A DNA stretch of 64,000 bases from Moniliella sp. 'wahieum' (GCA_003971905.1 RSEE01000024.1:682001-746000); one strand, 5' to 3'. Positions 501 to 44,439 are shown, counted from the first letter of the stretch. Numbers and translations are program-made. The notes: a model not told the origin generated them from the letters alone.

Positions 501-2717
501 GGCCAGGGAGGGTGGAGCGTGGGGGCGAAGACACTAAAGGGACGAGCCGGGCAGCGGAGAGAAGGGCAGGGCAAAAAGACCAGACAAGAGACAAGGCGCA
601 TCCCACGGCACGGGAGGAGCAGAGGGCAGAGACCGAGGGGGAGCAGCAGAGGCTGGACGGGCCAGACGTAGAGTGAGAGGGGAGCGGCGGGGAGTACTGA
701 GTACTGACTGAGTACTGACGCTGGCAGGAAGAGAACCTGGCAGCGAGTGGCTGGCTGCGGCCGTATGTGGACCAGCTGCGTCCGGGCACCGCAGCACTGT
801 GCCAGCCGCCGCCGCTGCGACGGACGAGCAGCGTAGCGCGTGACGTCATGGCGGGGGGCGGCGCTGCGCTGGCGCCGTGCCGCCCCCGCGACCGACGACT
901 GCGGGTCGGGGGTGGCGCGGGGGGGTGGCACTGGCCAGGTGCGGCCCACCTGGTTCTCGCGAGCGAGCACTAAAGAGGGGCAGCCGACGGCGAGCGTAAT
1001 CGGCCCCAGTACGTGGCAGCATATATGTACTCAGACCGAGTACTCAGATCCTGATCTCGGGTCTCTCCTCTCTCCTCTCCCTCGTCGCTCGACTGGCGCA
1101 AAGACTCGCGCAATTGGCGCCCGCCGGCAAGCGCCAATGGCGCATCGGCTCGCACCCGCAAGCCTTTTGCTCTCTGCCTTTCCCCGCGCCACCGCCACCA
1201 CCGCCCTGGGCGTGACACCCCGGCCACCCCCCACCCCCTGCCACTCCACAGAATGCACCGGCAAAGCCACAGCCCTTATTCCTACTGACTGATCGCACCG
1301 TGACACATGTCCTCAGAAGCCATCCATGCCAACGACGATAGATGGTCATCTTCGCTTGCTCCGCGCGTTGTAGTTGTGTTGAACGTTGGCCGTCGGACCG
1401 TGTCAGCATCCACTGTCGCACTCCCCAAGCGAACCACAATCGTGCCGCAAACCAAGGTAATTGTATCCTGTGCAAATCCATTTGACACATGTGCATTCCT
1501 CACTGCATTCATTCAATCGGGGGTATCGCCTCTCCCCCCGTTTTCGCGTGTTGTGGCCTCCGCCGCGTCGGCTCTCCTAGGCTCATCTGTTTGCATTCCA
1601 AGCCCAATGTTCTGGCTCCGGCTCTCGTTCCCTCAAGTTGCTTTCGAGCCTCGCCTCTTTTTTCTAGAGTCAGTTGCTCCCTTGGCGGACCATGCGCTCC
1701 ATTTGGCCAGGGGCGCGCCCCACTAGCCCACCTGTGCATCTGGGTCGCACGCGCGAAGCGTGTCGCGTGAACCAGGCCCGAGAGGAGGTAGCTACGTCGA
1801 GCCACCAGCAGAACGGGAACCAGGTGGGGGACGACCAGCGCTGTCGTCACAGTCATTGGTGGATGCCTACTAGTATGGCCCAGCCGCATCCCAGCCTCGA
1901 CGCAGCTACTCGGTTGTCCAACCGACTGCGACTGCCGACTGATGCTGTGATGCAAGATGCAAGAGGAGGTCTTAGTCCAACGTCAGTCGGGGGGGTTGGG
2001 CCGTCCAGTCCCGTTTAGCGTGCACCACGCCTCCTCTGTGCACAGTACGAAACGCCTCAAGGAGCGCGCGCACCCCCGCCATGGGCCGAGGGGCTACCTG
2101 CGCTACAACTCGTCCGTTCGAGACACATGGCACCATGCGGAGGGGAGAGGAGGGTGCGGCGTCCTCCTCATGGTATAGTAAGTAGTAGTAGTGCACTGGC
2201 AGCTCAGGCCTACTCGGGTGCGAAGAGGCCCACGCGCCTGCGTGTGGGGACTTCACGTGGGCCGTGCTCCGTGGGATCCACCTCAGCGCCAAAGGATATG
2301 AGCAATAGGAGTAACAGGGAGCTTCTCTGGTACAATCCGCGCCAGTAGGCCAGGCACCTGCCCTTGGTCCGTCTGCCTGGACCTGCCTCGTGCGCTGGCA
2401 ATTGCCAGCGCTGCGCCACGGAACAAGGTACGGGAACGCATCGCAAGCCCGCGCTGCCTTTCGTACTTTGTACTTCGTACCACCACCAGCCTGCCTCGAC
2501 CCGCTGCTCGCCGTCCGGCGGGGTTCGGTTCGGTTCGGTTCGCCGCTCACCGCTCGCCTCTCAACTATGCGCCCGAGGCCTGCTCACGCATCGGGAGGTC
2601 CAACTCCAACAGGTAGGTGGCGCGACCGGCAGGCAGGCGCACACAAAACAAAGATAGATGTGAGGGGAGAAGGGAGAAGGGAGAAGGGAGAGGGGAGAGG
2701 AGGGAGGGGAGAGGGAA

Positions 2718-4908: not shown

Positions 4909-5608
4909 GCTGGGAGGCGGGGACGGTGGTGGGCTGGAGACAGGCAGCCAGCAGCGGCGGCGGGCCAGGCAGGGCGAAAAGATGGCGAAAAGCAGGCGAA
5001 AAACAAACCAAAACAGGCGGAAACACGCGCAAGACAGAGCCGGCCGAGCACGTGGTTGCGGTGTGGTGTGCGGTGGACGGTTGAAAGTTGCAGGAGGCCA
5101 CTGGGCGGCCTACGATGCAATTGCTCGACGCCTCGTCAGATCTCAGATGGCGGCCGCTCGGCGACCTGCCACGGCCACTGCGCCACGGGCGGGTGCGTGC
5201 GGGTGCGCGAGCAGCACTGCGCTCGTCTGTGGCGAGCCATGGGGCACTTGCTACCGGCTGCGAGATGCTACTGGCTCCTAGTTGCTCGGTCCTCGGTCTG
5301 GGGACTCTTACTCTGTCTGCCGCTGCCGCTGCACGTGGGCTTTGTCTTTGTCTTTGTCTCCCTCTCTCTCTGGGGGGTTTCGGCCCGCCGGCCGGTGGTG
5401 GTCAGTATATCAGTACTCAGTCTGAGTGGTCGGTGGTCGGTGTTCGCATGTCGGGATTCGGTGTTCGATTCGGCCCAGGTCGGTTCGAACCGTAACCGTA
5501 TCCCCGGGTTCCAATTTCCTCCCTTTCCGTGCGGCCGCCCGCGCCTCCATTCCGCCCTGCGCTGCCCTAAACGTTTAACCCCCGAGTCAATATTCCCTCC
5601 CTCGTCAT

Positions 5609-5857
5609 GCAAAGCAAAGCAAAGCAAAGCAAAGCAAAGCAAAGCAAAGCAAAGCAAAGCAAAGCAAAGCAAAGCAAAGCAAAGCAAAGCAAAGCAAAGC
5701 AAAGCAAAGCAAAGCAAAGCAAAGCAAGCAAAGCAAAGCAAAGCAAAGCAGCAAAGCAAAGCAAAGCAAAGCAAAGCAAAGCAAAGCAAAGCAAAGCAAA
5801 GCAAAGCAAAGCAAAGCAAAGCAAAGCAAAGCAAAGCAAAGCAAAACAAAACAAAAC
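5609..5857. repeat. (GCAAA)n pentanucleotide microsatellite, about 47 copies, decaying into (ACAAA)n
   Basis: Directly visible, with two short interruptions near 5725 and 5750. Confidence 0.99.
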
Positions 5858-6277
5858 ATATGCATAACGAAGCAAAACAACAAAACGACAATCAAGCTTC
5901 AAGCAAGATCAGATGCACAACCCCACAACTCCATAACCAAAGCAGGTCCCTTGCCCGCGCCAAGCCACTGCACTGCACACGTAGTCCTTGCCTCTACCCC
6001 GCCCCGTCCCGTCCAGGCGCACGACGCGGCGTGGTCCAGCGAGGGGCCATGCCCGCTCATGCGCCCGCGTATGCGCCCGGGGCTGGGCCAAGCTCAGGGG
6101 CTGTATCACGGACGTGAGGCGTGCGCGCGCTGGCCACTCGCTCCAAATCGCCCTGGGGGTCGACGGCCACAAGGCCAAACGCAAAAGCGAAAACGAAAGC
6201 GAAGGCCGAGGCGAAGGCCGAAGCGAAATCGGTCGCAGCCGTGTGTTGCGTCCGGGCCCGCTCCGCATCCGCGGTGG

Positions 6278-8387: not shown

Positions 8388-9544
8388 CGACAAGGGGCGG
8401 ATGGGTGCTGGGTGGATGCGTGCGCAGGGCTATGGCCTAAAGCACATCGGCATCATTAATCACGGCGCAGTAATCACCCACATGAGCAGCCCACTCGGAT
8501 GCCTCGGGGGCGAGGCGTACTAGGGATGCATGATGCAGGGTGCGGTGACGCTGTGCTGGTGCCACGCGACCAACCCACCCCCACCCACCCCAGCCCTGCC
8601 GCTGGAGGCTCAAGCGCGAGGCATTGGATCATGAGATCTGAGATCTGAGATGCGGATGGGTTCGATGGTTGATCTTCGGCCTGCGGCGCGGGCCAGTGCG
8701 GCAGGCCGAGGCATGCCGACGCAGCATCCGCTCGCCGCCCAACGCCGATGACAGCACAGCCGCCCTCAGCCTCAGCCTTAGCGCAGCCTGGGCGCGCAGC
8801 TCCAGCACTGCCGCCGCAGCCGCAGCCGCAGCGGCATCATCCATCAGCCACACCGCCCATCCCACCCAGTCCCCGCCCTTGCCCGCCCTTTCTCTCCCAT
8901 GCCCCATCTCCCATCTCCCATCTCCCCTCTCCCCTCTCTTCTCTGCGCCTCCCAGCCGAAGCACACGTTCTCGCCCCTGTAGACATGATCCCACCCCTCC
9001 CTTGTCCTCAGCCTGTGCATAGCATGGTCCGCAGCTGGCACATACCCGGGCATAGCATGCGTCTCACCTCCCCAGCCGCCATCTTTGCTCCCTTGTCTTC
9101 CGTGGGGGCGTCATGTTGGGCAGCGTCCAGCCACTCGCGTAAGGGCAACCCTGTCTGCGCCTCCCTTTGGATTCCCGCGTCGGTTGAGGTGTTGGTCTGT
9201 CCATGTGGGTCACTCCTCGGCGCTCTCCCCCGGCACGCTTGCACGCGTCTATCGCTTGTGTCCCAACCCGCCAAACCACATCGTCGGTCGTCCGGTGCGG
9301 ACGAGGTAAAATGCATTTGGCCTGCAGGTCAAGCAGATGTTTTTTTCAGCACGTTGGAGATGAAGGGGGCGAGGGGGGGCGCCCCCCCCCTCCGCCTTGC
9401 CCGCACGACGCAACCGCAAGACGGAGCGGGCGTACAAGGATGCATAGCATAGGCATAGGATGAGACAGGGCTCTCGAAAAGAGAGTGAGGGATGGGAAGG
9501 AAAACAAAGTAACGGCGATACAGCGCATGGCGAAGCACGTAGTC

Positions 9545-10306: not shown

Positions 10307-11246
10307 GCTGCCTGCTTGCTGGCGGTTAGGCCTTAGGTTGGTGGCTCGGAGCAGGCGCAGAGGAGCGCAGCGGGCAGGCCTCCGCGCCCAGAGGGGCAGT
10401 GCCTGCCCGGCCGGCCCACACAGCCCAGGTGGCTGGGCAGCCCGGCCAGGCGCAATTATTCCATCGATGGGAGGAGGGGGGTAGGGTTGGGGCTCCCTGG
10501 TGTGATGCATGATGCATGATGCAGATCGACCGCATTGATGCATGATGCATGATGCAGGGACGGGCTCTTCGTGTGCAATGTTCAATGTGCAATGTTCAAT
10601 TTGAACGTGCATTGTTCCGAGGGGGCGTAGGGCCTACTGGGGGGACAGAGTGTGCTATGCGCTAGGGTTAGTCCCACGCAGCCTCGGGAGCGCAGTGGAT
10701 CCGGACGTGGCCCCCCCTGTGCGCCCGAGCGTTCGCCGTGGGGTACACCCGGCGCAGCGCTGACTGCTGACTGCTTCAGCTCGTGCGCTGCGAGCCAGCA
10801 AGGGATAGACAGGCCTGCCGTCGAATCTGTCGCATCTCCTCCACGTAATGGTTCCTCCGCTTGCCATCTCACACGCAGAACGCCGGGCACGAACGCAGAA
10901 CACGAACGTAACGCCCCGAGTCGGGCGGTAGGACATCCCACGTGGGCGCTTGCTACCTTGCGAACCTGACCCCGGGCCAGGCCTTGCGCTTGCGCTGCAA
11001 GCCAGGGACCAGGCCCCGCACTACGCCAAGCACGATTACCGATTACCAGCAACGAATGATTCATGACCCAACCTCAGCCCAGCAAGCAGGCCTCGCCACC
11101 GACCCGCATATGTATCAAAGGGGGGCGGGCAAGACCATACAGAAGCATACAAAAGCAGATCTAAGCAGACCGAAGCAGGCCGAAGCAGACTGGGCCGTAG
11201 CCACTCGTTGTGCTCTTGCGAGGCAGCGAGGTGGCGCGTTGGCGCG

Positions 11247-13735: not shown

Positions 13736-15330
13736 TGCAGCTGGTGGCGGTGGTGGTGGTGGCGACGGAGGTGGTGGGCGGACGGGGGGGGGAGGTGCGC
13801 GGGGCGGTGCTGCGCAATCAGTCCGAGAGCAAGCCTTGGCTGAAGGCCGAGAGCATCGCGCGCCGCCAATGAGTAGCCCTCAGGCCTCAGTATCAGTACA
13901 GCAGTCCTGCTCAGTCCGACGCGCCGTCCTCGGCCCCAGTCCAGTCACCCATCATCCATCCTCTCACCTGTGACATGCGACCGAGTGACCAATCACCCGC
14001 ACGTCCGAACACTGCCCCCCTTCCCCCTTCTCCTGCCGCCCCCCCAGCCCCGGCACCACACGGCACGGCGCCCCTCACGCATCGCCGCCGGCGCGCCGTT
14101 GCGCCTGCGACCTGACAGGCGCGGTGCCGAGTGAGACGGATCGGCCCGCGCGCCCGCTTACCAGCCCACCGCGGGCACCGCGCCACCCTCCTCGCCACCG
14201 CGGCCACGTGGCACTAGGGTTATCCAGGGCCCGCTCCAGCACACTCCGCTCCCACGCCGCTGCCCGCGTATGTCATGCATCATGTGTGTCACATGTCATG
14301 CATCATGACTAGCCGTCGGCGCGGGGCACAGGCAGGCACGGGGGCAGCTGCGACGCTGCGCGTCGAGCGGGTTGCTCTTGCGACAAACGTTGAACGTTGA
14401 AACTTGAACGTTCAACTTGAACGATCGCTCCAGGGTTCAGCCGGTACGTTCAGCCCGCGCGTTGCAACCGGTCGCAGCGCAGCCGCCCCACCGCCATCCT
14501 TAATCCTTTAGCGTCCTCATTCGCATTGCGCGCACTGGCCAATCAACATTATCAACCAATCACCCCTTTCAAGCGGCCCTACGTCTCGTCCCAGCCCCGT
14601 TGAGCTGCTGGAACCCGCGCGCCTGCTGCTCCTTCCTCCTGCGCCCTGCCGCACCTGGTCCCGCTCGGCAGCTCGGCAGCGCATCTGCTCATCCGCTGCG
14701 GTGGTGTGCGGGGAGGCACAGTGGACGATCCACAGTGGGAAGACGTTGCTGGCCGAGGTGGAACCCCTCCGACTCTCTGTCCTTCTGCGCCGGTGGCTGG
14801 CGTGCGCTCCCCAGCCAAGCGTCAGATCTCAGCGACTGGGCGGCACGGGCGGGCTATAGACTGCGGAGGATCGGTGCGTGCAGGGGACTGACTGCGATGG
14901 GGAGGCAAAGTAGCAGTACTGGCAGTGACAAGGTGCGTGCCCGGAAACGGGATCTGGCGTCTGGGAGTGGCCTCCTTCACACCCTTGGGCTGGCGTTTGC
15001 TTTCCGCTGTCAAAAGCGGGGCTCAAGAAACACACGAGAGGCTAGAAAACAATGGCGGGGTGGATAGATAGATCGCTTCTCGTCGGGCGGTAATGCATAA
15101 TGCGCGTTGCATGCACGAGTGGATAGCAGAAATAGATGGAGCGCCGCAGTGAGTAGGAACTGCAATGCCAGGCCATTCTGGCCCAAGACGAACGTCCAAG
15201 TGACCCAAGCGTTGCATTTCATTGCATGCGCGGTGGTACCCTTGAAGCTGGAAGCTTGATCTCGAGCCAATCTAGACTCAAACAGAATCCCAATCCCATT
15301 CGTCGCCGCTCGAGCCATGTGGGCGTGGTA

Positions 15331-24222: not shown

Positions 24223-24686
24223 CCCCAGCGCAGGGTTTTGTGGGCCAGGGCGAGGGGGAGCCCAGCCCATGCGTCGGTTCTGCTCCGCTAATCTATCTAT
24301 CAGACCCAGTATGCGTGGCGCCGCAGGCCCCAGCATAAGCAGCGCGTAGCCGCCAGTGGGACGGGGTGGCACGGTCGGTCGGGCGCCGCTTAGCGCTTAC
24401 GTCAGAGGCGGGGCTGTGCGGCGAGCTGGGCGAGGTTAGGTAAGCGGCGCCGCAGCAGCGCGTGCGGTGAAAGATTGAGAAAAGGCTGATTACCGCCAGC
24501 TGGGCTGAACGGGTGAACGTTCGTTGAACGTTGAGCCACCGTGATCGCCACGCCGCTCGAGGGAAGCTTCAGCTTCAGGCAAGCAGGCAGGCAGGCAGGC
24601 AGGCAGGCAAGCAGGCCAGCAGGCAAGCAAGCACGCCCACTCGCAGCTGCGCGCTCCCCACTGCCCATCGCTCGCCAGAGCATGCC

Positions 24687-26312: not shown

Positions 26313-27883
26313 TCTCCACTGTTCCCCCCCCCCCGGCAGATGGCGCCTTGCCCTGCCTTGGCTGGCATCTTGAACGACATCCTCTCCTCTCCTATCCCTG
26401 TTCCTACTGGCACGACCTCCGGCTCCTCAGTCCTCAGTCCTCAGTTCTCAGACCCAGCAGATCGCATGCCCTCATACACGTGCTCGGCACGCTGCACTAT
26501 CGACACTCATGTACTGGCTGGGCTCATGCACTCATGTACTTTCCGTGTGCACGTCCTCATGTACCCATGTGGTACCTACGACCTCTTACCTCGATCGGCT
26601 GCCCCGTACCTAAGCTGTAAACGTTATAGGCTCTACCTACTCCGTATATCTCCCCAACGCTCTCTGCGTCTCTCGGCAACTTGTCCTGGTTGGATTATAA
26701 TTTGCATTTCACCCTCGTTGCCTTGCAAGGCCTAAGGCCGGATATGCCTCGACTTTCCACTTGACCAACTTCACTCGTCGCGCGACGGTACGGAGTAAGA
26801 ATTGGCGCGGCAAGTGCGAACCAAGGGCGTGGAAAGTCAGCGAAACGATCGGCAATGGAATAGAGGAAAAAGAACGCGGCATCAGGGAAAAAAGGGTGTT
26901 CGAGAGAGAAGAAATATGTGGCTGACTGGAGGCGCCACTAGGCCCCCCCACAACCCAGTTTGCTTTGGCAACACGCCCGCCGTATCCACCAATACCGCCG
27001 ACACCCATACGGCGGACGGTGATGTATGAAGCGCAGAATAATGGATTCAAATGACGCTGCAAGGCGAGGGACTGGCAGTGAGACCGTAAAAGAGAGAAGA
27101 GCGGCCTCTTTAAAAGCGCTCATCTTCAGCGTTTGGACAAAGATTCGGCCAAGTGCTGGGTTTATAGGATGACGAGAAGACTGCCAAAAGCATCTGGAGA
27201 CATGCCCAAGGTCCCTTCCACCCGCTGGCCATGATGCGCGGCGACACGGAGCTCCTGTGCCACCTAGATGGCCAAACCATGTGTGATTTTCGACCACCCG
27301 ACTCAAATGAAGAACTCAAGTCGGTCGGAGTCTCACGTGAATCGCATGGGAGGTGTGGTCGATCGCGCGCATGCTTACTGCGTTGGTTGGTACCCCTTCG
27401 CCCCCTCCAACCGGGATACGAATTATTAGCGTCGGGAGCCAGAAGGTCTGACCTGTCGGCGCCGCCATGAGGCATCAGCGCATCAGCCTCCGACAGTTGG
27501 TGGGCGCATCTTGGCAGCGCTGAAGCTTGAAGGTCGAAGCGAATCACTGTGTGCCTAACGGGCCTTGCTGATTGGATAAATGGGTTGGGAGATGGAGTCG
27601 ATGATCGATGAGCTAAGCATCAGCAGAGCGCCATGATGCATGATGCAAGCTATGCATGCGTGACATGTGACAAGAGACATGTGATGCATGCGAGGTACAG
27701 TCAAAATGACTGGACGGGCCAATTCCGCAGCACTGCTGCTTGAAGCCGCACCAGACCGGAGACACAGTTTTATTGCGCCAGGGTTGGGTCAGTGCAAGCT
27801 AGGGTTGGCACCCGCTGCCTGCCTGCGCGAAATCGGCAGCTGCGTGCTACGCCCCGCCGCCCACGTCCATCCAATCGCTCGCA

Positions 27884-28242: not shown

Positions 28243-29159
28243 GTGTCTCGCTCGTCTTGTCTTGTGTTTCGGCTGGATCGGGATGGATCTCGCGTCGCGA
28301 GCACTCTTCCTGCCCGTTGCCCACGCACGCCCTTCGGCACGTTGGGAAGTATGCCTACTATTAGACCCCATGTCACCCCCCCCTCCCCCCCTGCCCTCTT
28401 CCCTCTTCAGACAGAGACGGGGGGTTCATCTTTGCTCTGCAATGCAAAACTCCGCGCTGGCGGGACGAAGCAGCTGTCCCTTCTTTCCCTGCGTGTACTT
28501 GTAGTCGGATTAACCCATGGGTGTGATGGCCGCGACCCATTGGCTGGCGAAACCCCTGTCCCTTTGCCCTTCGATATAAAGAGGCCGTACTAGGCTGCAG
28601 AACCCCCCGTTGCTTCCCTCTACACTCGGTAGCGTCGTGGTAACCCGAGGTCGTGACCAATGAGCCAAGTCAATAGGTTCGATACCCAAATGGGTCGTTG
28701 TTTTACTGTCCTGGGCTGCAGCTTGACGGGCAACAGAGCAGGGCTGTTAGGCCAGTGAGAGGCCCACGAAAGCTAGCTTCTAAGGCACTTGGATGTGCCG
28801 GCCGAGACAGTGCCGCGCGTAGTGAAACAAGTCGATGTATGTGGTATCGGTGGTTGTGTGGGAGCGAGCGTGGTGGACAGAGAAAGAGCATGCCAGATAG
28901 TCTAACCATCAATATATCTGCGTGCATTAGCGCTGGGACGACGGACTGTCGCACGAGAAGCGGGTGATGAAGGTTTCTTGGCACCCCCCTCCTCTGGCTG
29001 CTCTTGTCTTGTCGGCGTCCAAGTGACATGAGACGGTACCTGTGGCAACTGATGTCTGGAAGTTAAAAGCCTCATCGGTTACATGCTTCAAACCAACTTC
29101 GACGACGATGAAGGAGAGAGCAGTGATTAATGATTCACCACTGTGGCCCGTCAACTCGA

Positions 29160-29205: not shown

Positions 29206-29662
29206 TATAGTAGAAGGACGAAACGTCGAGTCCTGATTAATGATTAGATTATGCATTATGGTCGATGATGGTCCTCGCAGATGATGCAATCGCACGCGTA
29301 GTCGCGGTCAAAGCCCCACCCAACGACCTCTACGGGCCAACTGTGAGGCGCGTGAGGCCAGCCGCGACCAAGCCTGCGCGCCTGTGGCAAAGGGAAACCA
29401 CGGAGTTGAGAAAACGCTGCAGCTTCATCAAGTGGGTCTGAAGCTTGAAGACGGAGAAGTACAGGAGTCTGACGGACCCTGCCGGTGGCCACACGGACGA
29501 GTCACCCGGCATGAGAACCGTCAATTACGCTGCTTGCGACTAGGCGTTGTGGTGGGGGCTCATTAATCACATGCATTCGAACGACACCTGAAATTGCGCG
29601 GAACGGGCCGGTGGTTTGGCGAAACGGGATGGCGCAGCTGCGAGATGCATCGTGAAATATTT

Positions 29663-31856: not shown

Positions 31857-33242
31857 ACGTTCCTTGTCCGTCGCATAGCATCTTCTAAGCTCTTGTACAT
31901 TAATACCATTGCCCCTCTTTGCGTTATCCTCCGCACAGCATGTGCCCCATCAATAATTATAGTGACTGATGCATTCGTTCTAGCGGCTCGTTCCTCTTTC
32001 CTCAAGAGTCCTTCGTATGTTGCCATGTGATGAGGAGGATGGTGTGTAGTAAGTAGTGAGGCCTTACGCACTGCCTGTCGGAGAGAGGACATGTTGGCCG
32101 AAGGCCGACATGCGTATCAGTGTGCTGTGATAGACCAAAAAGAAACGCACAGCGGTCAATTGGAACGACTATGCTTGTTTGAAGGAAACGAAGAGGGGCC
32201 GTGGGACACGCTACAGGACATGCTACTACGATCCGTCTACGTTCTGCGCAACGGCATCGCCCAGCTTGGTCGCGTCAACATGTCAACCGATATCACCTCG
32301 CAAGTATCCCAACTCAGGTCGTCGAGAGAATACAGTCATGCACCGGCACAGGCACCATAGTGTACGTGCACCATGCACCATGGGGGTGAGTCACGCGGCA
32401 GTCTGACTCTTACCTGAGCCTCAGGCAGTCCTCCCTATCTATATCAGCTCCTGCGAGCCTAGTCGCAAAATGGCGCTCGCTCTAGTCTGTGTGACTCTTG
32501 TGACGTTGAAAGTGTTGGACATGGAGAACGATGTTGGCGTTGTCGTTGATGATCGATGACGCTGATGCATGATGGCGGTCGGACCGGGTCGGAACAGGCC
32601 GACACGTCAGATCTGAGAGCGAGTCTGAACAGCAGATCCCCCGACGCAGAATAACTCGGTCCTCAGCCGGCCAGCCTGCGCACTCCGAAAAGGGAATCTC
32701 TCCCGCCGCAACGTTTTAGTTGACGGATTATAGCCACCGTTGAACGTCCTTGACGTTGAACGCCGCAATGCCATGGACCAGTCGCACGTTCCTCGACGGA
32801 TGCGGACGTTGGACGTTGGGCGTTGGACGTTTTGGACACTTGAACGTTGGCGCCGCTCGCCGCCGCGTCGCTGGCTGCGCACACGTAGCGCATGCATGTG
32901 CGCGGCCTTGTCGCGCTGCGCGCCCCGTCCGCAGTCCGTGAAGCTGTCCGCAGTCGGTGAAGGAGAGTGGACACCAGGGGCACGACCATCGCACTGCCCC
33001 CCTTTTCGAGCCGGTTGAAGACAGTTGCGCGGCGAGATCGAGGGCGGGCTGTCTGTTCCATGTAGTGTGGTGGAGGCACAGCGCCGCGCAGCCCAGCCCA
33101 GGCCAGGCTACAGTACAGTAGGGTTACGCGTAGCGTCGCCGGAGTTCCTCCGGCGGGGGAAGCAGGCGCGGCGAGGCCTGCTATAACCGGTAACCCATCC
33201 GACCGCTGCCCAGCAGGCCCACCACGTGCCCCTTGCGGGGGG

Positions 33243-36492: not shown

Positions 36493-38210
36493 GGCTGCCC
36501 AGCGTGAGCTAGGGGGAGTTGCCCTGACGCTGGGGATGTGGTGATGCGTGACGCGTGATGCGTGACGAGTGACGGGTGCTACTGACTAGTGACTTCCCCG
36601 GTGACTAGTGTGACACGGGCGGCAGGTGGCAGCAGTTCCTGACAGCTGCCGAGCACTGGCGCCGTGCGCCGACAGGCTGGGCCCTGGCGTGTGCCCGAGG
36701 GCATGCCGCCCCAGGGCGGGGCACAGGGCGCTGTGCCCAAGCGGGCATGGCAGTGTGCCGAGCCGAGCGCAGGCAGGGCGCAGCTGCCCGGCTGTTGTTC
36801 GATCGCAACGCGCACTGGGTACGCCTGCAGCACGCACGCCCGAGCACCGCTCCTCGCAGCGGCCGCACGACCCACCGCCGCAAGGATCCATGCACGCCGC
36901 TGTGCCTGGGGCATACGCTAGGCCAGCGCCTGTGCCCCCCACCTGACCCGTGCGGGAAAAACAGCTGCAGAGGACCCGCACCCTCTGAAGCTTTAGACCG
37001 CCGACCCTGCAGCGCCGCAGCCGCCCAGTCTGAGCTACGCAAGGGCGCCGGGGCTGCCAGGACGCCCTCCTGCAAGCCTTCAGCGCTTCAGCGCTCCAGC
37101 GCCGCAGCGCCGCAACGCCTCAGCGCTGAGCCGCTTAGCGCCAACCGGCATGGCTGTGACAGGCGTGATGCGTATGACTGTGACAGCGTGGCCGCGACAA
37201 AAATGACGTCGGCCACCGGGTCACCTTTGACGTGTGGCGCGGTGGCACGCCTCACGCCTCACGCATGCCAGGCGCGTCCAATCCGTTTCATTGATCATTG
37301 ATCGATGATCACCGATCTTCCGTACAGGTGTCCACTTCCATCCCCCCCCCCCCACTGCGAGCTGCTGTCGGCTGCCCCCTGTTGTCTGGGGCGGCGGGTG
37401 CGAGGGGACGCAGAGGACTGGAAGGACCCTGGCAGGCGGCAGGTGAAGTGGCAGACGTAGGATGCACCCGCATCCCCGCGCCTCCGGCAGACGGAGGCGC
37501 CAACACGTAGAGTGGCAATCCTGGTTGGACCCCTCCAGACCCCGCCGGTGCCCGGTGCCGCTGGCATCTGCCATCCACCACCTGCGTGGGAGGTGTGGTG
37601 GCAAAGCAGGGCCATGCAGGTTGCCAATGCGAGGTAAAAGATGCTGCGCTGCTCGGCAGGGCCCCGCTGCCCATTTGCTGGGCACGATGTATGACGTCGA
37701 GGTTAACGTTATGGCCATGTCATCATGTCATCGATCTTCGATCACTTCCATCCGTACGCGGGCTTAGCGCTTAGCCGCTTTAGCGCCCAGGCTCAACGGC
37801 TGAGCCTCAGCACTTTGCGCTGATTCTAGCGGTTGTCACCCATAGGTCACGCGTCGCATGCTGCGATCCTGGCGCAGACATCTCAGGTCTTGCCGGGTAG
37901 GGCGAGACCCTGTCCGATCATACCTCTTTCGCGTCGGAGAAGGGCGGGATGCGGAGCCATCGGCTATGGGAGTGCTATGGGAGGCGATGCCGTTGTGGTC
38001 CATCGGCTAAAGGCTATCGCTACGCGAAGGCAGCTGTCGGCTACCGCAGCAAAAAACGCACTGCGTGCATGTTAAGGATGCGCTGCAATACGCGCTTCGA
38101 GCTTCGGGAGAGCACAATGCGAAGTGTGGTATGGCAGCCCACACCAAAGCACTGCAAGCGCAACGGTGCAACAGCTGCCCCCCCTTGGTTGGCTTACGAT
38201 GCAGGAGGGA

Positions 38211-38387
38211 GGCAGGGCAGGCAGGGCAGGCAGGGCAGGCAGGGCAGGCAGGGCAGCAGGGCAGGCAGGGCAGGCAGGGCAGGCAGGGCAGGCAGGGCAG
38301 GCAGGGCAGGCAGGGCAGGCAGGGCAGGCAGGGCAGGCAGGGCAGGCAGGGCAGGCAGGGCAGGCAGGGCAGGCAGGGCAGGCAGGC
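38211..38387. repeat. (GGCAGGGCA)n 9-bp tandem array, about 19 copies
   Basis: Directly visible. Confidence 0.98.
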
Positions 38388-40133
38388 AGGAGGGTAGGCG
38401 CGAGGCCGGCGGGGGACACATAAAAACGCCAAAACCCATCTGTACACGGACCAAACCGATTGCCGGTTACGGTAAGGACGCGTGAAGCTTTTGAAGCTTG
38501 AAGTTTTGAAGTCAGGCGTCGGTTACTGATCACCCACTTTGCGTTTCATCCTCCACAGGGCAAAGAGCCCGGGGAATTGGGTCAAATCAATCCGAAACAG
38601 CGAAAACCACACGATTTAGCGTACTTGCAGCTAGGTTCCCACACTACACAGCAAAAAATAGATGAGAGTGAGTCGATTTCCGTCTTGATGAACCAGATTC
38701 GCCATTTAATATATATTCAGTACACTCGCAGTGCCAACAGTATAGTGCTCGATACCGTCGGCTACTACAAATGTCAACGTTTGATCAAACACCCTTTACG
38801 TTTTACATTTTGAAGCGGAAGCGCTAAGCGTTTCAGCGTTTGCTTTAAGCTTTCCTCTTTAAGCGTTGAGCTTTAGGATTTAAGCTCTATCAGCTTTACC
38901 GGTTACCGGTTTTACTGATGAAGCGGTGAGGGGTGTCCGTGATGCATGATGTGCATGATACACAGGATGGATGATCGATGACGGGTTGACGCGTTGGCGG
39001 GTTCCATTCGACTGAAACCCCCAGGCTCCGTGGGATCTAAGACACCTGCCTGGGCCGAAACCTACATGCTACAAGCCTTCGTGCCAATGTGCAGCAAGAA
39101 CTCAGAATCGACCCGGACGGCCTGCGAGGGGTGCCCAACGCTCACATGCGCTCACATGAGATCTCAGATGGGGTCTTAGTACCGTCGGGGTGCAGACGGT
39201 TTCGATGATCCTGCCCGCGAGCCGCTCGGGGTTGCGATGAGGATGGTGAACTAGGGTGTACTAGGGTGTACTTTGTCGGGCCGCGGCGCGCACTTTGGCG
39301 TTTTGCCGTGGTTGCGATGCATGCATATCACAGCATTGCATGAGAATGCATCATGAAAACCGCACACGTGTAGAGAATTGATAAAGCTGGCACCATAAAA
39401 AGCTTGAAGGTCGCACCTTGAAGCTCGACAGCTTGACAAGCTTTTGACAGCTGGCGCCGGTTGTGGGGTGTTGGACCTTAGGCCCTTTGCCACAAGGCCA
39501 CAAAGCAAGCCACTGCTGGGGCTGCTGAGGAAGGGGCAAACTGGGACAGACAGGGCCCCCTGTGTCTCGGTTGGCTGAGACTGGATCTGCGCTTTTGCTC
39601 TTTTGCTGAAACTGATGACTGATATAACTACGTTTGCTGCACAATCTCTCCATCCACATATGCCTCATGCACGTCCCAGGCCTCACACTTTACACCAGCA
39701 CATGTCACATGTCACAGGCCTCTCCCATGCTGCGAATGCCACGCCGTGTCTCCACAACGCCCTAACGGTTCGATCAGGTCCAAAAGACTCAGGTCAACTA
39801 TGGAGAGGAAACGCGTGTGAAAAAAGGAAATCATGAAAGGGCCCGTGGTACGCGACCCGTCTCTGGTACGTTTCTATGTAAGGTATGTCAGGCCGAGTAT
39901 ACTCTGGTATGCCCCACCTGCCAATACGTAGAAAGGGGCATTTTCTTCACATTCGAAGACAAACAACGCCCTCTTCTCAACAAGCTTTCCTTTGAAGCTC
40001 AAACGTAATATAATGCAATGATATAATTCGCACTTCAAGAGACGAAGACCACACGCGTTGCAGAGAGAGACTCGCCAGCAGGCGATATAAGGTTGCGGGG
40101 AAAAGCAATGGGAAGCATAGAGAGGCATACTGC

Positions 40134-40385: not shown

Positions 40386-42010
40386 CCACCTTAATGCACA
40401 CAGGTTCTCGGAACTGTTTATGTAGGAGAGCGATACACAGGGCGGCGAGCGATTATCAATTTTGAATGAGTTACCCATGTTACATGTTACCACCTCCTCC
40501 CACGGACCATACCGAGAACGCGCCCAAACGCTTTTAAAAAACATACGTGGTCATCATCAACAAGTCTCAGGAAAGACATTCAACAAAGAGTCAAAAAGCT
40601 CACCCTCTTCATTCCCCATTTACCTCGACAGCCAGTTCTACGCCACTCCGTCCCGTGCTTCTTCAGCCTCACTGTCGTTAGTTCTTGAGGCCTGGCCTGG
40701 TTTGGCCGACAATGGACGGCTTACTATGATGCCATCACAATGAGATTAACGTTGAGGCCTGTGAGGTCCGGCCTGAGGGTACTGCGCCTACACGGATGGA
40801 GTGCGTTGAGGCACCCGAGGCTCTCAACCTGAGGCCTAATAAGGTATACCACTCCGGGGCTGCTCTGTCTCATCTGTTGTAATTCTCCCCTCTCGAATCT
40901 AAAAGTCACACATGGGCACCTCATGTTCTTCAAACGAGCCTATGCCGAACACCCCCCCCCCCCTGGCTACTAGAATTAAGCATCCGATAATCTCTCATTT
41001 ATGGTTGTAAGGCCGGTGGAACAAAAGGATTTAGGTGAGAACCTCTGGAGGTGTAGAGCCATGCCATCGCGGTGGTGGTGCCAGTTGAAGTCTAAACCTT
41101 AGGCCTTATATGCCACACCTGGAGGAGACAGGGGTTCGGACAAGCTGGAGAGGATACGCGTGGTGGCTTCGGAGGTCAAATAAGGAGCAAAAAGGGCTAC
41201 AAAGGCGCCTTGGCATATATAAGTACGGGACCGTGGGTCCCAACAATGGGATCTCACGGATTATTTGCCCTTCCTTCTGCCTGGCCATTGTCAGGAAAGA
41301 AGAGCGATAACCAGCAAGGCCGCTCGATGAACTCCAGTTGGGCAGCCATCCTCTAGTAAAAAGTCAGACGATTGGACGTATATCAGAGGCGAATACGGCC
41401 CGGCGATCTAGGCTTACCCAAGTGTTCCCTGCACCTTTTGCTCGTGCCAATGTGGTGAGCCTACGGACCGATCCTCTCACATTTCGGACCGCGGCCGAGC
41501 TTGCGAGCTCATTAACATTAATCATTCCTCATTCCTCATTCCTGACCTCAGGCTTCGGGCCTCACCGCCTCACCGCCTCACCCCAACCTAGTCACGGTTG
41601 TGGATCGATGGTGAGAAGGGTCCCGGAGAAGGCCTTCGGCCTCAGCCTGAGACCCGAGACCTGAGGTCATGCGGGCCTGACAATGTCGACGTTCAACGTA
41701 TTCAACCAAAGAGGGTTCTGAGATCTGATGTCTGGCCACAATGGGGATGTCACATGGCAGGGTATGTGATGAGAACCTGCGCGCGCCTATAGTACGGCGG
41801 GCCTGGCTATATCCAAGACAGTGCCAAAGAGTCCATTGTACGTGGGTTCATTCATTCACCCGAGTCCGTTGGACTCTCAGGTCGCAGAACTCAATTCTCA
41901 TCCGTCTCCACACTCCCCATCTTTAGTCCTCATCGTCTCTCATCTGTTGTGGGCCTATACGTGTGCTATGAGTCTTTTTCGGTATCCGGGTCCTGGTACC
42001 AGGTAAGCGG

Positions 42011-42372: not shown

Positions 42373-44439
42373 CTGCCGAGGCCTGACTCTCTGCCAATTG
42401 TTTTCTCTCTTCAAGCTTCAAGCTTCAACTTCAAGCTTCAAGCTTCAACAATATCCATCGTCATCTCTGCTCTCGATAGCCATTTTGCCAATACTATTAC
42501 GCGACGATTACGGAGGAACAACTTTACGTCGGACCCTCCAGTTGCTGTACCTGCTGTACCCCACCTTACTCTCTCCCGCTGCGCTGCGTGACGCGTGACG
42601 GCGTGACGGCGTGACGGTGTGGCGTGTGACATACTATGTGACTTTCCAACATACTATAACGCGTAACGTAGAACGCATAACGCGTAATGCTAGCGGCTCT
42701 CAAAATACCTGTCACGCGCACGGGACCTATGACGGAGTCGCGTGAAACTTGCTGATGTGTGTTTGCAAAACGGTCACGTCCAGCCTCTGTTCCATCCACC
42801 CGGCCTCTGTCCGTCCCCCCTGTGTACGCCCCTTCGCGGTCCTTTCCCCAATTTGTATCCACACCCTCCCTCCCTCCCTACCTTAATTTTGTTCCCTGCT
42901 TAATTACAACTTCCTTTGCGACCTCGCTTTGTCATGGGATTAGCCCCCAGGGGGCTCGCCCCTAAGTATGTCGTGTACCAAGTCCCAGACCCGCTTGGCG
43001 TCCAAACTACCTTGTCCAAGCTGCTGTCCAAGCATCTTCACGACCGAACAGCATAGGGCGACGATGTAGCTCATCCACCCGCCCCTCTTCGCGCAGTCAT
43101 CTTCATCAACTCTTCGCGCGGCGAGAAGCCAAGAAAATTGCCAAAAGATTTGATGTGGGAGTGCGTCTTTTCTTTTTTTTGCCAATTGGAGTGCTGATGG
43201 CTAACCAGTCCTGCCTCTTTTCTTCAGCACTATACTTTCGCCCCTCTCCGCATCGGACTGGGCGGGAAACACCCATCCCCCCGAAGCGGAAGAACGAGCG
43301 GAGGATCAAGCCAAGTTTGCGCAGGGAGAGGAGCCGGTGGTGTGGTGGGAACGAGCTCGCTCGATGTATTAATGGGCATGCCAGATTGCGACGAGCTGTT
43401 CTGGGTTGGCGTCCCATCAGTTAATACGGGCTTCGATTTGATTCAGGTCGCCGGCTATGTCGCCCGAGGCGAGGTAAGCGAGGCTAAACCATCATTCACG
43501 CCCCGGGACACCAAGTTGGCCATGAACTGCAGAGCCCGAGCTCGAACGAACGGCGGGTCTATATATGTGGGCAACGTAGCGCATTGGCTACTCACTGCTG
43601 CACCTTGCCTCTTGGGGGCGTGAACACTTGTCTCTATATGTCCATCCCCTTCGGTGTGAAAATGCGGAGGGCACCCAGCTGTGCAAAGCGTGTCAACTCT
43701 ATGTCCCGTGTTGCCCTCTACCTTGTAGCCCGGCCCCAGTGACCTTCCATTTTCCGGCGCCAACAGCCTTTGATTCTCCAGCACAACTCCCACGGCCCCG
43801 CGGCCGCAGCCCCACTGTCCGATCAAGCCGGAGATCAACAAAGCCCCCGCCGAGGCAGCAGCGATCCCTTCTTCATCCGCTCGTCCTCTTGTTGAGCCAT
43901 CCAGCAGCGCCGGCATCATCACAAGCGCCCACACCCTTTAACCTCCACCGACGAGAGAGTTACACGGAGACGCAGTGAGCGGTCCCGAGTTCCAAGGTAG
44001 GGATCGGACTTTGAAAAACGAGAATGCGACGGCAATTTCGTTCCGGCCTGAGTGCTGCGTATGTGGAGCACAGATTACAGTGGCTCCGCTGCAGGGAGCA
44101 CGGTGCTTGGTTTACTGGGTGCGTTTGATTGCTCATCTAGGCCCATCTCGTCCATCAGGAGCAACTCAACAACGTCCATGCCATTCTCGACCATGTTGGC
44201 AGATGCCTGCTCGCGGCTGCTCCTGCATCACCATATGTCCTCTATAAGTGTGGCAATATGGTATCCATGTCCGGCGGGCCCAGGTATGCCTGCATCGTCC
44301 CCGGTGAAGTAGCAGTCGGCGGGATGGTGGACAAGGACCGGGTGTAGTGGGGGGTTCAGCCTAGCTCAGCGTTCAGGTCTGCCATTTGTTAGGCGAAACG
44401 CGCTCAACGTTGAGGTTCCACATCCAGCCACCGCCTTGT

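Follow-up and report, generated by a model that had tools for sequence, protein, structure and literature searches.

In a 64,000-nt window of nuclear DNA (the whole stretch analysed) from a fungus of the Ustilaginomycotina (smut relatives), we observe palindromic heptads whose occurrence is real and far above chance level, and whose basic object is a single +7 insertion with a 12-base core and not a tandem array. These heptads are probably the record of a past mutational process and not a regulatory signal, and on balance, judging by their sequence, we lean toward reading them as fossil excision footprints of a cut-and-paste DNA transposon that acted at T-N-A. The transposon itself is something we infer, because the window contains no element, terminal inverted repeat, or transposase.

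Anatomy of the 12-base core

The core reads T-N-A-y-z / z'-y' / T-N-A-y-z, or the reverse complement of the same, and represents a net gain of 7 bp by insertion where the ancestral sequence was pq-TNA-yz. It contains a direct repeat of TNA with an identical N, and between the two copies lies a 4-bp palindrome copied from two bases of one flank. The spacer base recurs unchanged (N1 = N2 in 58 of 71) and seldom as its complement (6 of 71), so that the structure repeats by translation instead of by true double mirroring. A direct TNA repeat is the mark of a filled-in staggered cut, and both target copies stand here as a direct repeat, as in a hairpin-type (hAT/Mutator-like/Transib-like) footprint. 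Pairs of TNA sharing the same N peak at offset 7 only, where they make up 102 of 166 pairs, versus 17-52 of 69-111 at the other offsets compared (3-15).

Most sites span 1.4-1.9 units. Of the 52 period-7 runs, 20 measure 12 nt and 12 measure 13 nt, and 36 fall within 10-13 nt, i.e., below two full units. In 48 of the 52 the repeat continues for 2 nt or more past the 10-mer (TNA, palindrome, TNA) on one side or both (right only in 26, left only in 16, both in 6; neither in the other 4). In these 48, the palindrome is therefore the flanking dinucleotide plus its reverse complement, as in P nucleotides. Because extension by at least 2 nt on both sides is seen in only 6 of 52 and the one-sided 12-mer is the norm, the ancestral site was not itself a palindrome.

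The phase is fixed, with runs starting at T or ending at A, and both bases are needed: 66 of 113 events of the form 5+2+5 carry T at position 1 and A at position 3, and in the 75 events of the form 4+3+4 with A, T precedes in 66. The bases y, z, and N follow the background composition, with 13 of the 16 possible hexamers present, and 48 of 66 cores have G or C at N. Outside TNA, a symmetric 7-bp target is only weakly visible, a point against the transposon reading: in the 32 single loci z is G in 16 (P = 0.02) and base p is C in 12 (P = 0.34), and right and left types stand at 22:10. In the composite at 14287-14307 each palindrome is copied from the flank on its own side, left from left and right from right, which is the only order permitted by two successive events. 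A pattern demanding the same N throughout picked out the seven runs that have three TNA copies.

The loci are as follows (coordinates in the window; strand + or -, or a dot where none is assigned).

692..707 (-): AGTACT-G, 16-nt run, palindrome from left flank
707..718 (-): 12-nt core AC-TGA-GTAC-TGA, left type
5136..5148 (+): TCA-GATC-TCA-GA(t), right type
5410..5421 (+): TCA-GTAC-TCA-GT, right type
5892..5904 (+): TCA-AGCT-TCA-AG(c), right type
8452..8462 (.): TCA-TTAA-TCA, 10-mer core alone
8632..8651 (+): TGA-GATC x2 -TGA-GA(t), two-unit array, right type
10326..10337 (+): TTA-GGCC-TTA-GG, right type, RPL8 ORF edge
10503..10523 (+): TGA-TGCA x2 -TGA-TG(ca) array, upstream of RPL8
10536..10556 (+): second ATGCAT-G array, identical, 12 bp past the previous one
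13878..13890 (-): CC-TCA-GGCC-TCA(g), left type
14273..14284 (+): TCA-TGCA-TCA-TG, right type
14287..14307 (.): composite TG-TCA-CATG-TCA-TGCA-TCA-TG on one ancestral TG-TCA-TG
14386..14401 (-): AACGTT-G, 16-nt run, then degenerate copies to 14423
14822..14832 (.): TCA-GATC-TCA(g), core alone
15091..15103 (+): TAA-TGCA-TAA-TG(c), right type
18492..18503 (+): TGA-GGCC-TGA-GG, right type
20527..20543 (.): AAGCTT-T, 17-nt run, both sides extended
20731..20754 (.): AGCGCT-A array, 24 nt, longest of all
24387..24399 (-): (c)GC-TTA-GCGC-TTA, left type
24522..24534 (-): (c)GT-TGA-ACGT-TGA, left type
27521..27532 (+): TGA-AGCT-TGA-AG, right type, upstream of RPL38
27598..27611 (-): ATCGAT-G, 14-nt run, left type
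27632..27647 (.): ATGCAT-G, 16-nt run, both sides
27660..27672 (+): TGA-CATG-TGA-CA, right type
29124..29135 (+): TGA-TTAA-TGA-TT, right type, upstream of HSP70
29234..29246 (+): TGA-TTAA-TGA-TT(a), right type
29248..29260 (+): TTA-TGCA-TTA-TG, right type
29439..29450 (+): TGA-AGCT-TGA-AG, right type
29560..29569 (.): TCA-TTAA-TCA, core alone
32548..32559 (-): GA-TGA-TCGA-TGA, left type
32563..32574 (+): TGA-TGCA-TGA-TG, right type
33184..33195 (+): TAA-CCGG-TAA-CC, right type
36546..36558 (-): (g)CG-TGA-CGCG-TGA, left type, within degenerate heptad stretch 36541-36594
36583..36594 (+): TGA-CTAG-TGA-CT, right type
37299..37310 (+): TGA-TCGA-TGA-TC, right type
37762..37775 (.): GC-TTA-GCGC-TTA-GC, 14 nt, both sides
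38491..38503 (+): TGA-AGCT-TGA-AG, right type
38896..38911 (+): TTA-CCGG-TTA-CCGGTT, 16-nt run
38940..38951 (+): TGA-TGCA-TGA-TG, right type
38970..38981 (-): GA-TGA-TCGA-TGA, left type
39699..39716 (.): ACATGT-C, 18-nt run
40476..40490 (-): ACATGT-T, 15-nt run, left type
41097..41108 (-): CC-TTA-GGCC-TTA, left type
41717..41728 (-): TC-TGA-GATC-TGA, left type
42409..42448 (-): AAGCTT-C arrays, two adjacent 20-nt (CT-TCA-AGCT-TCA-AGCT-TCA-A, twice), left type; the 20-mer is tandemly duplicated
42586..42600 (.): ACGCGT-G, 15-nt run, then period-8 GCGTGACG copies
42657..42668 (+): TAA-CGCG-TAA-CG, right type
42678..42687 (.): TAA-CGCG-TAA, core alone
55099..55111 (+): TAA-TCGA-TAA-TC, right type; sole locus past 44 kb

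An earlier sequence-only reading of this DNA had described intergenic arrays of period 7 built from 13 different A-NNNN-T palindromes. All 13 are present, and the named hexamer is found at 25 of the 25 positions given; the loci listed within 692..44415 are real, but about twice as many exist (51), one of them at 55100, past that range. The array as the unit, and its symmetry about two alternating centers, give way to the single +7 insertion with its directly repeated spacer.

Enrichment and period specificity

Counts of the 10-mer (TNA, 4-bp palindrome, TNA) amount to 58 positions at 51 loci, where 200 dinucleotide shuffles average 1.7 and never exceed 6, and the 12-mer cores number 66 against 0.29 expected from such shuffles (maximum, 2). 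In the window the other 10-mer classes are at expectation (ANT, 2 versus 1.7; GNC, 9 versus 8.4; CNG, 14 versus 8.7), so the comparison with other odd palindromes proposed by the earlier reading comes out in favor of TNA. A blind scan of geometries joining a target-site duplication (TSD) with P nucleotides lets t = 7 alone stand out, with 61 versus 4.9 in controls for (t = 7, k = 2) and 47 versus 5.0 for (t = 7, k = 3); the neighboring geometries give 8 versus 1.1 for (8,2), 37 versus 19.9 for (6,2), and 1 versus 0.4 for (9,2). In the surroundings of XNX' 7-mers, only (k,j) = (2,2)/(3,3) is enriched, at 66 versus 2, 2, and 4 in the other classes. By-products expected of hairpin footprints show no enrichment in the window, and exact 7-bp duplications are in no excess once the palindromic arrays are set aside. 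That other product classes are missing is observed directly, as are the scar anatomy and the enrichment.

Tandem repeats of a short unit are very common in the DNA of this fungus. Exact period-7 runs of at least 14 nt number 41, of which 18 have a unit of a 6-bp palindrome plus one base; 100 dinucleotide-preserving shuffles yield a mean of 3.69 such runs (maximum, 8) and 0.45 palindromic ones (maximum, 2), an enrichment that the earlier reading had anticipated. Its rule that every hexamer starts with A and ends with T holds for 16 of the 18 palindromic arrays and fails for GCGCGC-A at 15623 and TGATCA-T at 37288, the T....A class accounting for one of the 18. The preference for period 7 over periods 6 and 8 is borne out, with fully palindromic units in 0 of 79 period-6 and 0 of 19 period-8 runs; palindrome-plus-one-base units occur in 0 of 8 period-9 runs. 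At period 5, the unit includes a 4-bp palindrome in 30 of 124 runs (16.25 of 55.68 in shuffles) and is A-initial in 1 of the 30. The same hexamer palindrome recurs at offset 7 thirteen times (11 of them A..T), versus 0-4 times at every other offset in the range 4-21.

Ordinary microsatellite dynamics, in which heptamers that form slipped hairpins expand more readily and palindromic units pile up, could draw on a DNA full of short tandem repeats, and a contribution of slippage is likely once two units are present, a few loci having 3 units. However, 36 of the 52 runs (10-13 nt) are beyond the reach of 7-bp slippage, and since 32 of 52 are only 12-13 nt, below two full units, slippage cannot have founded them. 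The phase is fixed, palindromes are not enriched at periods 5, 6, 8, or 9, and T..A, G..C, and C..G hexamers, which should hairpin equally well, are not enriched either. Given the sub-two-unit runs, the fixed phase, and the enrichment of the TNA class alone, we reject slippage as the founding step and give this explanation as a whole only a very slight chance.

Genomic context and decay

By coordinate comparison, 0 of 51 loci lie inside Pfam-matched coding stretches, in line with the earlier statement that conserved coding sequences are spared; the locus at 10326 reaches the end of the RPL8 ORF but not the portion matched by Pfam. The loci are in non-coding DNA, many of them upstream of RPL8, RPL38, and HSP70. 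Such clusters, together with the sparing of Pfam-matched coding stretches and the recurrence of a few motifs, e.g., TGATGCATGATG and TGAAGCTTGAAG, are what functional cis-elements or DNA-shape elements in promoters, such as dimeric-factor sites kept by selection, might produce. We consider this distinctly improbable, as the half-sites are direct and lack dyad symmetry, there are 13 different cores with y, z, and N at background composition, the extra two bases always copy the flank, and many degenerate copies have no protected position. Copies with 0, 1, and 2 violations number 66, 81, and 268, versus 2, 9, and 198 in the composition-matched ANT class, and in the 59 one-violation copies lying outside perfect copies the mismatch may fall at any of the 12 positions, 5-7 times at each of the T/A positions; the decay pattern looks neutral. 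The DNA-shape element suggested earlier loses its footing here, while the argument that fixed geometry with free sequence speaks against a single transcription-factor site and ordinary slippage stands. A dyad-symmetric transcription-factor site (e.g., of the bZIP type) is rejected on the spacers, complementary in 6 of 71 versus identical in 58.

Proposed mechanism

The product is exactly that expected of hairpin-type excision of an element with a TNA-centered 7-bp target duplication. The putative element would insert at nnTNAnn and make a 7-bp TSD centered on N, converting pq-TNA-yz to pqTNAyz-[element]-pqTNAyz, and would exit by the hairpin route of hAT, Mutator-like, and Transib/RAG transposases. 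Its excision would seal both flanking ends as hairpins, and a host nuclease would nick each hairpin 2 nt (or 3 nt) beyond the tip, yielding 3' overhangs that are self-complementary (one strand carrying yzz'y', the other q'p'pq). These would be overlaid and each strand ligated without trimming or filling, so that both strands gain 7 nt and differ in the central 4 nt, after which replication or mismatch repair would fix either pq-TNA-yzz'y'-TNA-yz or pq-TNA-q'p'pq-TNA-yz. Such a course would explain the direct TNA repeat, the flank-copied 4-bp palindrome of free sequence, the A....T hexamer, and the period of 7. The net +7 would be the untrimmed hairpin joint at t = 7; we infer it, like the element, the hairpin chemistry, and the sequence of events, from the scars and not from an element. 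Short arrays may grow by repeated hits and then by slippage: every scar would double the count of TNA targets, and because the inner TNA of a scar lies within a perfect 7-bp palindrome, a subsequent excision there would yield two overhangs that pair along their whole length.

Among the mechanisms listed in the sequence-only reading, hairpin-opening repair at TNA with 7-bp target duplications or excision footprints is the sole one that the anatomy fits. Repeated fold-back, or a rolling hairpin, predicts mirror symmetry about both centers and hence spacers alternating between N and N', which the 58 identical pairs out of 71 contradict. Duplication of a target that is itself a 7-bp palindrome is at odds with two-sided extension in 6 of 52 runs only.

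Another way to divide the 12-mer is W5 + rc(last 2 nt of W5) + W5, as would result if a hairpin-type element (Transib-like or hAT5-like) duplicated 5 bp, TNAyz, and a 2-nt P addition were kept at one flank only. Counting both strands there are 113 such 5+2+5 events, with W = TNAyz in 66. TNA is, however, off-center in this duplication, and the mirror product (P addition on the T side), expected equally often, is not seen; the pair of T at position 1 and A at position 3 alone is enriched, at 66, the next commonest pair reaching 9. One hairpin would have to open off-tip and the other exactly at the tip every time, whereas the 7-bp model needs no trimming. We regard the 5-bp version as improbable.

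If the transposon reading is true, the 64-kb window holds about fifty legible records of one precise mutational event, and the scars disclose the target nnTNAnn, the 7-bp duplication, the flank-hairpin cleavage, and hairpin opening 2-3 nt off the tip for an element absent from the window. They would also form a clear case of short tandem repeats arising from transposon scars and not from slippage, with an in-built reason for scars drawing further scars. The signature TNA-yz-z'y'-TNA-yz is simple and countable in any assembly, and could serve to date and map past activity of such elements and to study how basidiomycetes join hairpinned ends.

Search for an element and possible breakage without one

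The search for a transposon with 7-bp or TNA TSDs, as proposed earlier, came back empty in the 64 kb, which contain neither filled sites nor an element with defined termini and a transposase. Of the window's 107 inverted-repeat pairs, the 25 longest include none that resembles transposon termini, and a Pfam scan of 180 ORFs brings up no transposase family; of 1,246 pairs of identical nnTNAnn 7-mers 40-12000 bp apart, one alone reaches 10 of 14 complementary inner bases. Scars occur at about 1 per 0.85 kb over the first ~43-44 kb, on ~4% of the TNA sites there (57/1438). Like the missing element, this density, which is very high for excision scars, counts against footprints.

The same break-and-hairpin chemistry might operate without a mobile element, through a host-encoded or domesticated transposase-like nuclease or other recurrent breaks in open promoters, nnTNAnn being cut with a 7-nt stagger and repair leaving the +7 scar. 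The lack of an element or transposase in the window would suit this, as would the very dense scars, their clustering upstream of the highly expressed RPL8, RPL38, and HSP70, and the prevalence of one uniform product class. However, one enzyme would have to make a staggered cut that is duplicated and also close the ends into hairpins, and we know of no nuclease that does both unless an inserted element lies between them. In addition, a simple staggered cut, once filled, gives exact 7-bp duplications, and those show no excess beyond the palindromic arrays; cut-and-paste elements, for their part, can be rare or extinct while their scars remain. We find this explanation unlikely, albeit with a real chance, and it would point to an unknown endogenous break-and-repair process in promoters. 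Its extended form is more doubtful: a host or domesticated hairpin-forming nuclease would repeatedly break nnTNAnn in open promoters, error-prone repair would be a major endogenous source of insertions, and the arrays built may become co-opted promoter sequence. Under such a nuclease, a rough steady-state estimate puts the event rate per TNA site at about one-third of the per-base substitution rate.

Comparison with known systems

Canonical hAT elements make an 8-bp TSD on nTnnnnAn. They are rejected here on the net gain of 7, on the period-8 geometry (8 versus 1.1 in controls), and on the 8 listed duplicated 8-mers, none of which has T at 2 and A at 7. PIF/Harbinger elements duplicate a TNA target, usually TTA/TAA, and so resemble the heptads in their T-N-A direct repeat; however, a 3-bp duplication adds 3 bp and not 7 and leaves the flank-derived 4-bp palindrome unexplained. 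Such elements would leave a TWA duplication with 3 bp gained, or excise precisely. We reject them on the 7-bp gain, on the prevalence of G or C at N, and on same-N TNATNA, which at 38 of 101 is barely over other offsets. Tc1/mariner footprints share a uniform, near-palindromic scar of few bases between duplicated target bases, but their filler comes from constant element ends and their target is TA, whereas the heptad filler is variable and copies the local flank; with no TA duplication and 13 different flank-copied fillers, this origin is likewise rejected.

Flanking-DNA hairpins are described for hAT, Transib, RAG1, and a Mutator-like element, with opening by host enzymes such as Artemis and footprints left by end joining (PMC5499845). 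Ac/Ds footprints in Candida and yeast consist of P-nucleotide palindromes centered at the element border, with a few predominant types, and depend on the Artemis relative Pso2 (PMC5873905). By these accounts (PMC5873905, PMC5499845), hAT elements (Ac/Ds, Hermes) resemble the heptads in that the duplicated target is kept, the junction is a short palindrome complementary to one flank, few product types prevail, and host end joining does the repair. However, the heptad scars gain 7 bp and not 8, their T and A are one base apart and not four, their palindrome arm of 2-3 nt is nearly invariant, and they are known here without the element. The Candida Ac/Ds hairpin footprints are heterogeneous, with 28 types in 128 revertants (PMC5873905). 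One product class dominates here, a difference that counts against the excision reading.

Basidiomycete DNA transposons with 7-bp TSDs include hAT7 of rust fungi and Kyakuja (KDZ) of Laccaria, which belong to the same phylum and make a duplication of the length predicted for the putative element (PMC12730594); the supplement gives consensus sequences without TSD lists, and the two are described from rust fungi and mushrooms, not from Ustilaginomycotina. Kyakuja further differs in its CA..TG termini without inverted repeats.

V(D)J coding joints (RAG, Artemis) arise in somatic cells of vertebrates, are joined imprecisely, and lack a target duplication, but are alike in that hairpinned flanks are opened a few nucleotides off the tip, giving self-complementary 3' overhangs and P nucleotides. 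Artemis opens hairpins by a 2-nt rule.

Palindromic arrays with a period of seven

At all 25 positions for which the sequence-only reading had named a palindromic hexamer, that hexamer is present. We observe 41 exact runs of period 7 that are 14 nt or longer, 18 of which have a 6-bp palindrome plus one base as their unit, compared with means of 3.69 runs and 0.45 palindromic runs in 100 dinucleotide-preserving shuffles. The proposed rule that each hexamer starts with A and ends with T holds for 16 of the 18 palindromic arrays. Fully palindromic units are absent from the 79 runs of period 6 and the 19 runs of period 8, and none of the eight period-9 runs has a palindrome-plus-one-base unit; at period 5 a 4-bp palindrome occurs in 30 of 124 runs, shuffles giving 16 of 56, and A is not favored. 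An identical hexamer palindrome recurs at offset 7 in 13 cases (11 of them A..T), against 0 to 4 at each other offset from 4 to 21. The period-7 palindromes are confirmed, and the effect is limited to period 7. Tandem arrays, which had been taken as the repeat itself, are present, but the basic unit is smaller, with 16 of 52 runs reaching two full units.

Anatomy of the repeated core

We counted 10-mers in which two copies of X-N-X' (N, any base; primes, complements), with N identical in both, enclose a 4-bp palindrome. When the four possible classes are compared, TNA alone lies far above its shuffles.

Counts of the X-N-X' + 4-bp palindrome + X-N-X' 10-mer in the window and in 200 shuffles
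TNA class: observed at 58 positions (51 loci); shuffle mean 1.7, maximum 6
ANT class: observed 2; shuffle mean 1.7, maximum 6
GNC class: observed 9; shuffle mean 8.4, maximum 18
CNG class: observed 14; shuffle mean 8.7, maximum 18

In sequences of the form T-N1-A + palindrome + T-N2-A, N2 equals N1 in 58 of 71 cases and is its complement in 6, and TNA is therefore a direct repeat rather than half of a dyad. This excludes both fold-back synthesis, which had been suggested for these arrays, and dimer-binding sites. Pairs of TNA share the same N in 102 of 166 cases at offset 7, compared with 17 to 52 of 69 to 111 at offsets 3 to 15. Of the 52 maximal period-7 runs around the 10-mers, 20 measure 12 nt and 12 measure 13 nt; their phase is fixed, and 48 of them extend at least 2 nt past the 10-mer on one side or more (right only, 26; left only, 16; both, 6; neither, 4). 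From this phase and one-sided extension, the core is thus T-N-A-y-z/z'-y'/T-N-A-y-z or its reverse complement. Such 12-mer cores of both types number 66, against 0.29 in shuffles (maximum, 2), and the 13-mers are about as many as 12-mers lengthened by one base through chance would give. Between its TNA copies, the core carries a dinucleotide from one flank and then that dinucleotide's reverse complement, the source being the right flank yz (right type) or the left flank pq (left type). Deleting any seven consecutive bases of a run gives back pq-TNA-yz, so the event is a net insertion of 7 bp that duplicates TNA.

Three further candidates were rejected. Template switching or snap-back synthesis at a break, dismissed on paper, predicts the complement of N in the second TNA, seen in the 6 of 71 cases, and the free y and z give no microhomology. 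Footprints carrying element end bases (a 3-bp TNA duplication with 2+2 terminal bases) would require 13 element families and give no account of y and z being repeated after the second TNA. The idea of a three-frame stop, in which TNA supplies TAA or TGA on either strand and period 7 visits three frames, leaves the palindrome and the flank copy unexplained.

Fixed and copied bases

Among events of the form 5-mer, reverse complement of its last two bases, and the same 5-mer (both strands), 66 of 113 combine T at position 1 with A at position 3, and the next commonest combination of bases there accounts for 9. For "4+3+4" events with A at the critical place, T precedes in 66 of 75. N in the cores is C in 22, G in 26, A in 11, and T in 7 cases, and the 13 hexamers are seen one to seven times each, roughly tracking dinucleotide composition; the three absent hexamers have AT-only cores. 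T and A are fixed in the 66 events while the other bases are free, so T and A are recognized and the rest is copied. Target symmetry beyond TNA is only hinted at: among the 32 single loci, z is G in 16 (p=0.02) and position p is C in 12 (p=0.34).

Among the footprint geometries scanned, with duplication length t and the junction replaced by a palindrome of arm k, t=7 alone stands out.

Events by footprint geometry
t=7, k=2: observed 61; simulated controls 4.9
t=7, k=3: observed 47; simulated controls 5.0
t=8, k=2: observed 8; simulated controls 1.1
t=6, k=2: observed 37; simulated controls 19.9
t=9, k=2: observed 1; simulated controls 0.4

A variant built on a 5-bp duplication, the length of the directly repeated T-N-A-y-z, strikes us as improbable. 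Exact 7-bp duplications with a nonpalindromic unit are few.

A candidate excision mechanism

A staggered cut that is filled in has directly repeated target bases as its mark, and a hairpinned end nicked off its tip has an inverted flank copy at the joint (P nucleotides). Excision footprints of the hAT type combine a target direct repeat with a flank-derived palindrome, as do the heptad sites, the period-7 repeats of a 6-bp A....T palindrome and one spacer base. Flanking-DNA hairpins are described for hAT, Transib, RAG1, and one Mutator-like element; host enzymes such as Artemis open these, and the subsequent end joining produces footprints (PMC5499845). In Candida albicans and budding yeast, Ac/Ds footprints are described as deletions or P-nucleotide palindromes centered at the element border, two types making up 35 and 18 of 128 events, in a process that needs the Artemis relative Pso2 (PMC5873905).

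We propose that a heptad would start from a 7-bp duplication, pqTNAyz, with both flanks hairpinned at excision. Each hairpin would be nicked 2 nt 3' of its tip, a 2-nt nick on the 3' side being the Artemis rule, giving a 3' overhang yzz'y' on the left end and q'p'pq on the right. The upper strand of the right end and the lower strand of the left end would then each begin exactly at T. Were the overhangs overlaid and each strand ligated without trimming or filling, both strands would gain 7 nt, the upper becoming pq-TNA-yzz'y'-TNA-yz and the lower pq-TNA-q'p'pq-TNA-yz. These two predicted products match the observed right (26) and left (16) types, and in this joining geometry the net gain would be as long as the duplication, namely 7. 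Nicking 3 nt away from the tip would yield the same products, with each overhang's terminal T paired to the basal A of its partner, which may be the reason for a single dominant product. When P addition (k) is set against trimming (j) around X-N-X' 7-mers, (2,2)/(3,3) alone is enriched, with 66 cases compared with 2, 2, and 4 in the other classes, and the two combinations yield one product because T pairs with A. Outside the main type, the k=1 form occurs at two loci only, 11034 and 37250.

We infer this chemistry of hairpin, nick, and join from scar anatomy, and on balance we lean toward reading the heptads as excision scars of a cut-and-paste transposon. Two points weigh against a transposon: scars are dense for an element that moves by cut and paste, and with a single product class they vary less than footprints obtained experimentally. 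In the window, the inverted-repeat pairs listed (the 25 longest of 107) include no terminal inverted repeats of such an element, anchoring on the target duplication gave one weak match in terminal complementarity among 1246 candidate pairs, no element was found among the dispersed repeats, and Pfam returned no transposase family on 180 open reading frames (ORFs). The same break-and-hairpin chemistry acting without a mobile element would sit easily with these results; the likeness to hAT-type footprints favors the transposon, and we consider the element-free version rather unlikely.

For chemistry, the heptads find their nearest known parallels in hAT-type excision footprints and V(D)J coding joints; for duplication length, in hAT7 and Kyakuja. 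The 7-bp-duplication families reported in basidiomycetes include hAT7 in rust fungi and Kyakuja in Laccaria, the latter with CA..TG termini and no inverted repeats (PMC12730594). Cryptococcus KDZ elements make 8-bp duplications (preprint), and Pack-CACTA makes 3-bp duplications. Canonical hAT (8 bp, nTnnnnAn) does not fit the heptad sites; PIF/Harbinger has only the TNA repeat in common with them, and Tc1/mariner only the idea of a uniform scar. In the open-access literature searched, we found no description of palindromic heptad arrays, TNA-centered 7-bp footprints, or tandem repeats built from such scars.

Growth and decay of the arrays

In each of the seven runs that contain three TNA copies, a palindrome derives from one flank or more. 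At 14287-14307 the sequence is TG-TCA-CATG-TCA-TGCA-TCA-TG, its left palindrome derived from the left TG and its right one from the right TG, which is the sole order possible if one TG-TCA-TG site underwent two events in succession. A first event would leave the inner TNA within a perfect 7-bp palindrome, and if an element entered and left again at that point, the resulting overhangs would be complementary throughout. A further unit is found at 7 of 51 loci, whereas scars are present at only about 4% of TNA sites, a difference that may arise because of these complementary overhangs. Slippage probably also acts once two units are present; as the origin of sites that mostly fall short of two units and carry a flank-derived palindrome, we give it very little credence.

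Some arrays were altered further. The 20-nt array at 42409-42428 is additionally duplicated as a block, and two identical 21-nt ATGCAT-G arrays lying 12 bp apart at 10503-10556 (GATCGACCGCAT), upstream of RPL8, look like a 33-bp duplication of a preexisting array. At 42586-42630, one heptad (GCGTGAC GCGTGAC) is followed by a period-8 repeat (GCGTGACG, three times), a continuation that lies outside what the footprint model explains.

The 12-mer rule is obeyed in full by 66 copies, violated once by 81, and violated twice by 268; the corresponding numbers in the composition-matched ANT class are 2, 9, and 198. In the 59 one-violation copies outside perfect ones, the violation falls on T0 in 6, A2 in 7, T7 in 5, A9 in 6, N in 7, the y group in 13, and the z group in 15. 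No position looks protected, and decay looks neutral.

Genes of the window and location of the heptads

An HSP70 exon at 30497-31348 has 95 to 96% identity to proteins from Ustilago, Tilletiaria, Pseudozyma, and other members of the Ustilaginomycotina, which places the window in the nuclear genome of a basidiomycete related to the smuts. Its GC content is about 60%, and its content of short tandem repeats is very high. A codon-usage gene finder was confounded by in-frame microsatellites, and gene positions were obtained without it, from Pfam on the 180 ORFs.

Pfam-supported genes of the window
2561-3586, minus: protein kinase
6736-7914, minus: VTT-domain membrane protein
9545-10336, minus: ribosomal protein L2/L8 (RPL8)
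11247-13605, minus: aminotransferase
22481-23530, plus: GATA factor
about 27958-28242, plus: ribosomal protein L38 (RPL38)
29859-31878, plus: HSP70
47940-49055, minus: NAD-dependent epimerase

Rfam and tRNA scans gave no Rfam families or tRNAs in the window. On the minus strand at 29715-31884, ORFs antisense to HSP70 match PF10712 (NAD-specific glutamate dehydrogenase), which we take to be this family's known antisense-of-HSP70 artifact.

The sequence-only reading had placed the arrays outside conserved coding sequences, and comparison of coordinates puts all 51 loci outside the coding stretches matched by Pfam. Many are found upstream of RPL8 (10326-10556), RPL38 (27521-27672), and HSP70 (29124-29569), where a regulatory element might sit; given that no position looks protected, we hold a regulatory explanation to be highly improbable. 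A heat-shock element, TGAAGCTTGAAG upstream of HSP70, was considered and rejected: its second pentamer has TTG, not TTC, and the motif is one of 13.

The interval from 36.5 to 42.7 kb holds 17 of 51 loci, and the two 4-kb bins over 36 to 44 kb hold 19 of 58 10-mers. Beyond 44 kb there is a single heptad locus, which accounts for 1 of the 58 TNA-palindrome-TNA 10-mers. Positions 44001-64000 contain 0 to 31 short-tandem-repeat bases per 4 kb, versus 18 to 400 before 44 kb, and 16 ORFs of at least 200 amino acids, versus 2.4 simulated. Pfam finds the epimerase and a weak Exo_endo_phos match there and nothing else. For the ORF at 57184-58410, there were no homologues among longer proteins, and the protein atlas gave only subthreshold look-alikes; GC1-2-3 profiles gave no decision on the coding status of 44 to 64 kb.

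The sole interspersed repeat found in the window is a dispersed pair of about 200 bp (19923-20104/41999-42198) with 78 to 91% identity and a 24-nt indel; aligned for presence or absence of a heptad, its homologous part has no heptad site.

Other tandem repeats are also conspicuous. About 50 GCAAA copies with a 97% match occupy 5609-5855, in the repeat-rich stretch between the kinase and VTT-domain genes. Another 50 or so copies, of CAAGAC, lie at 12195-12497 between two minus-strand ORF pieces with Pfam support as aminotransferase (11866-12492 and 12493-13605), probably an intron that is nearly all hexamer array. About 21 tandem copies of a 9-nt unit, GCAGGGCAG(G), at 38185-38426 give spurious collagen-like Pfam matches in two frames. 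Finally, tandem repeats of 114, 45, and 90 nt at 61962-64000, all multiples of three and with 60 to 87% identity, suggest a repetitive protein-coding gene that extends past the window end.
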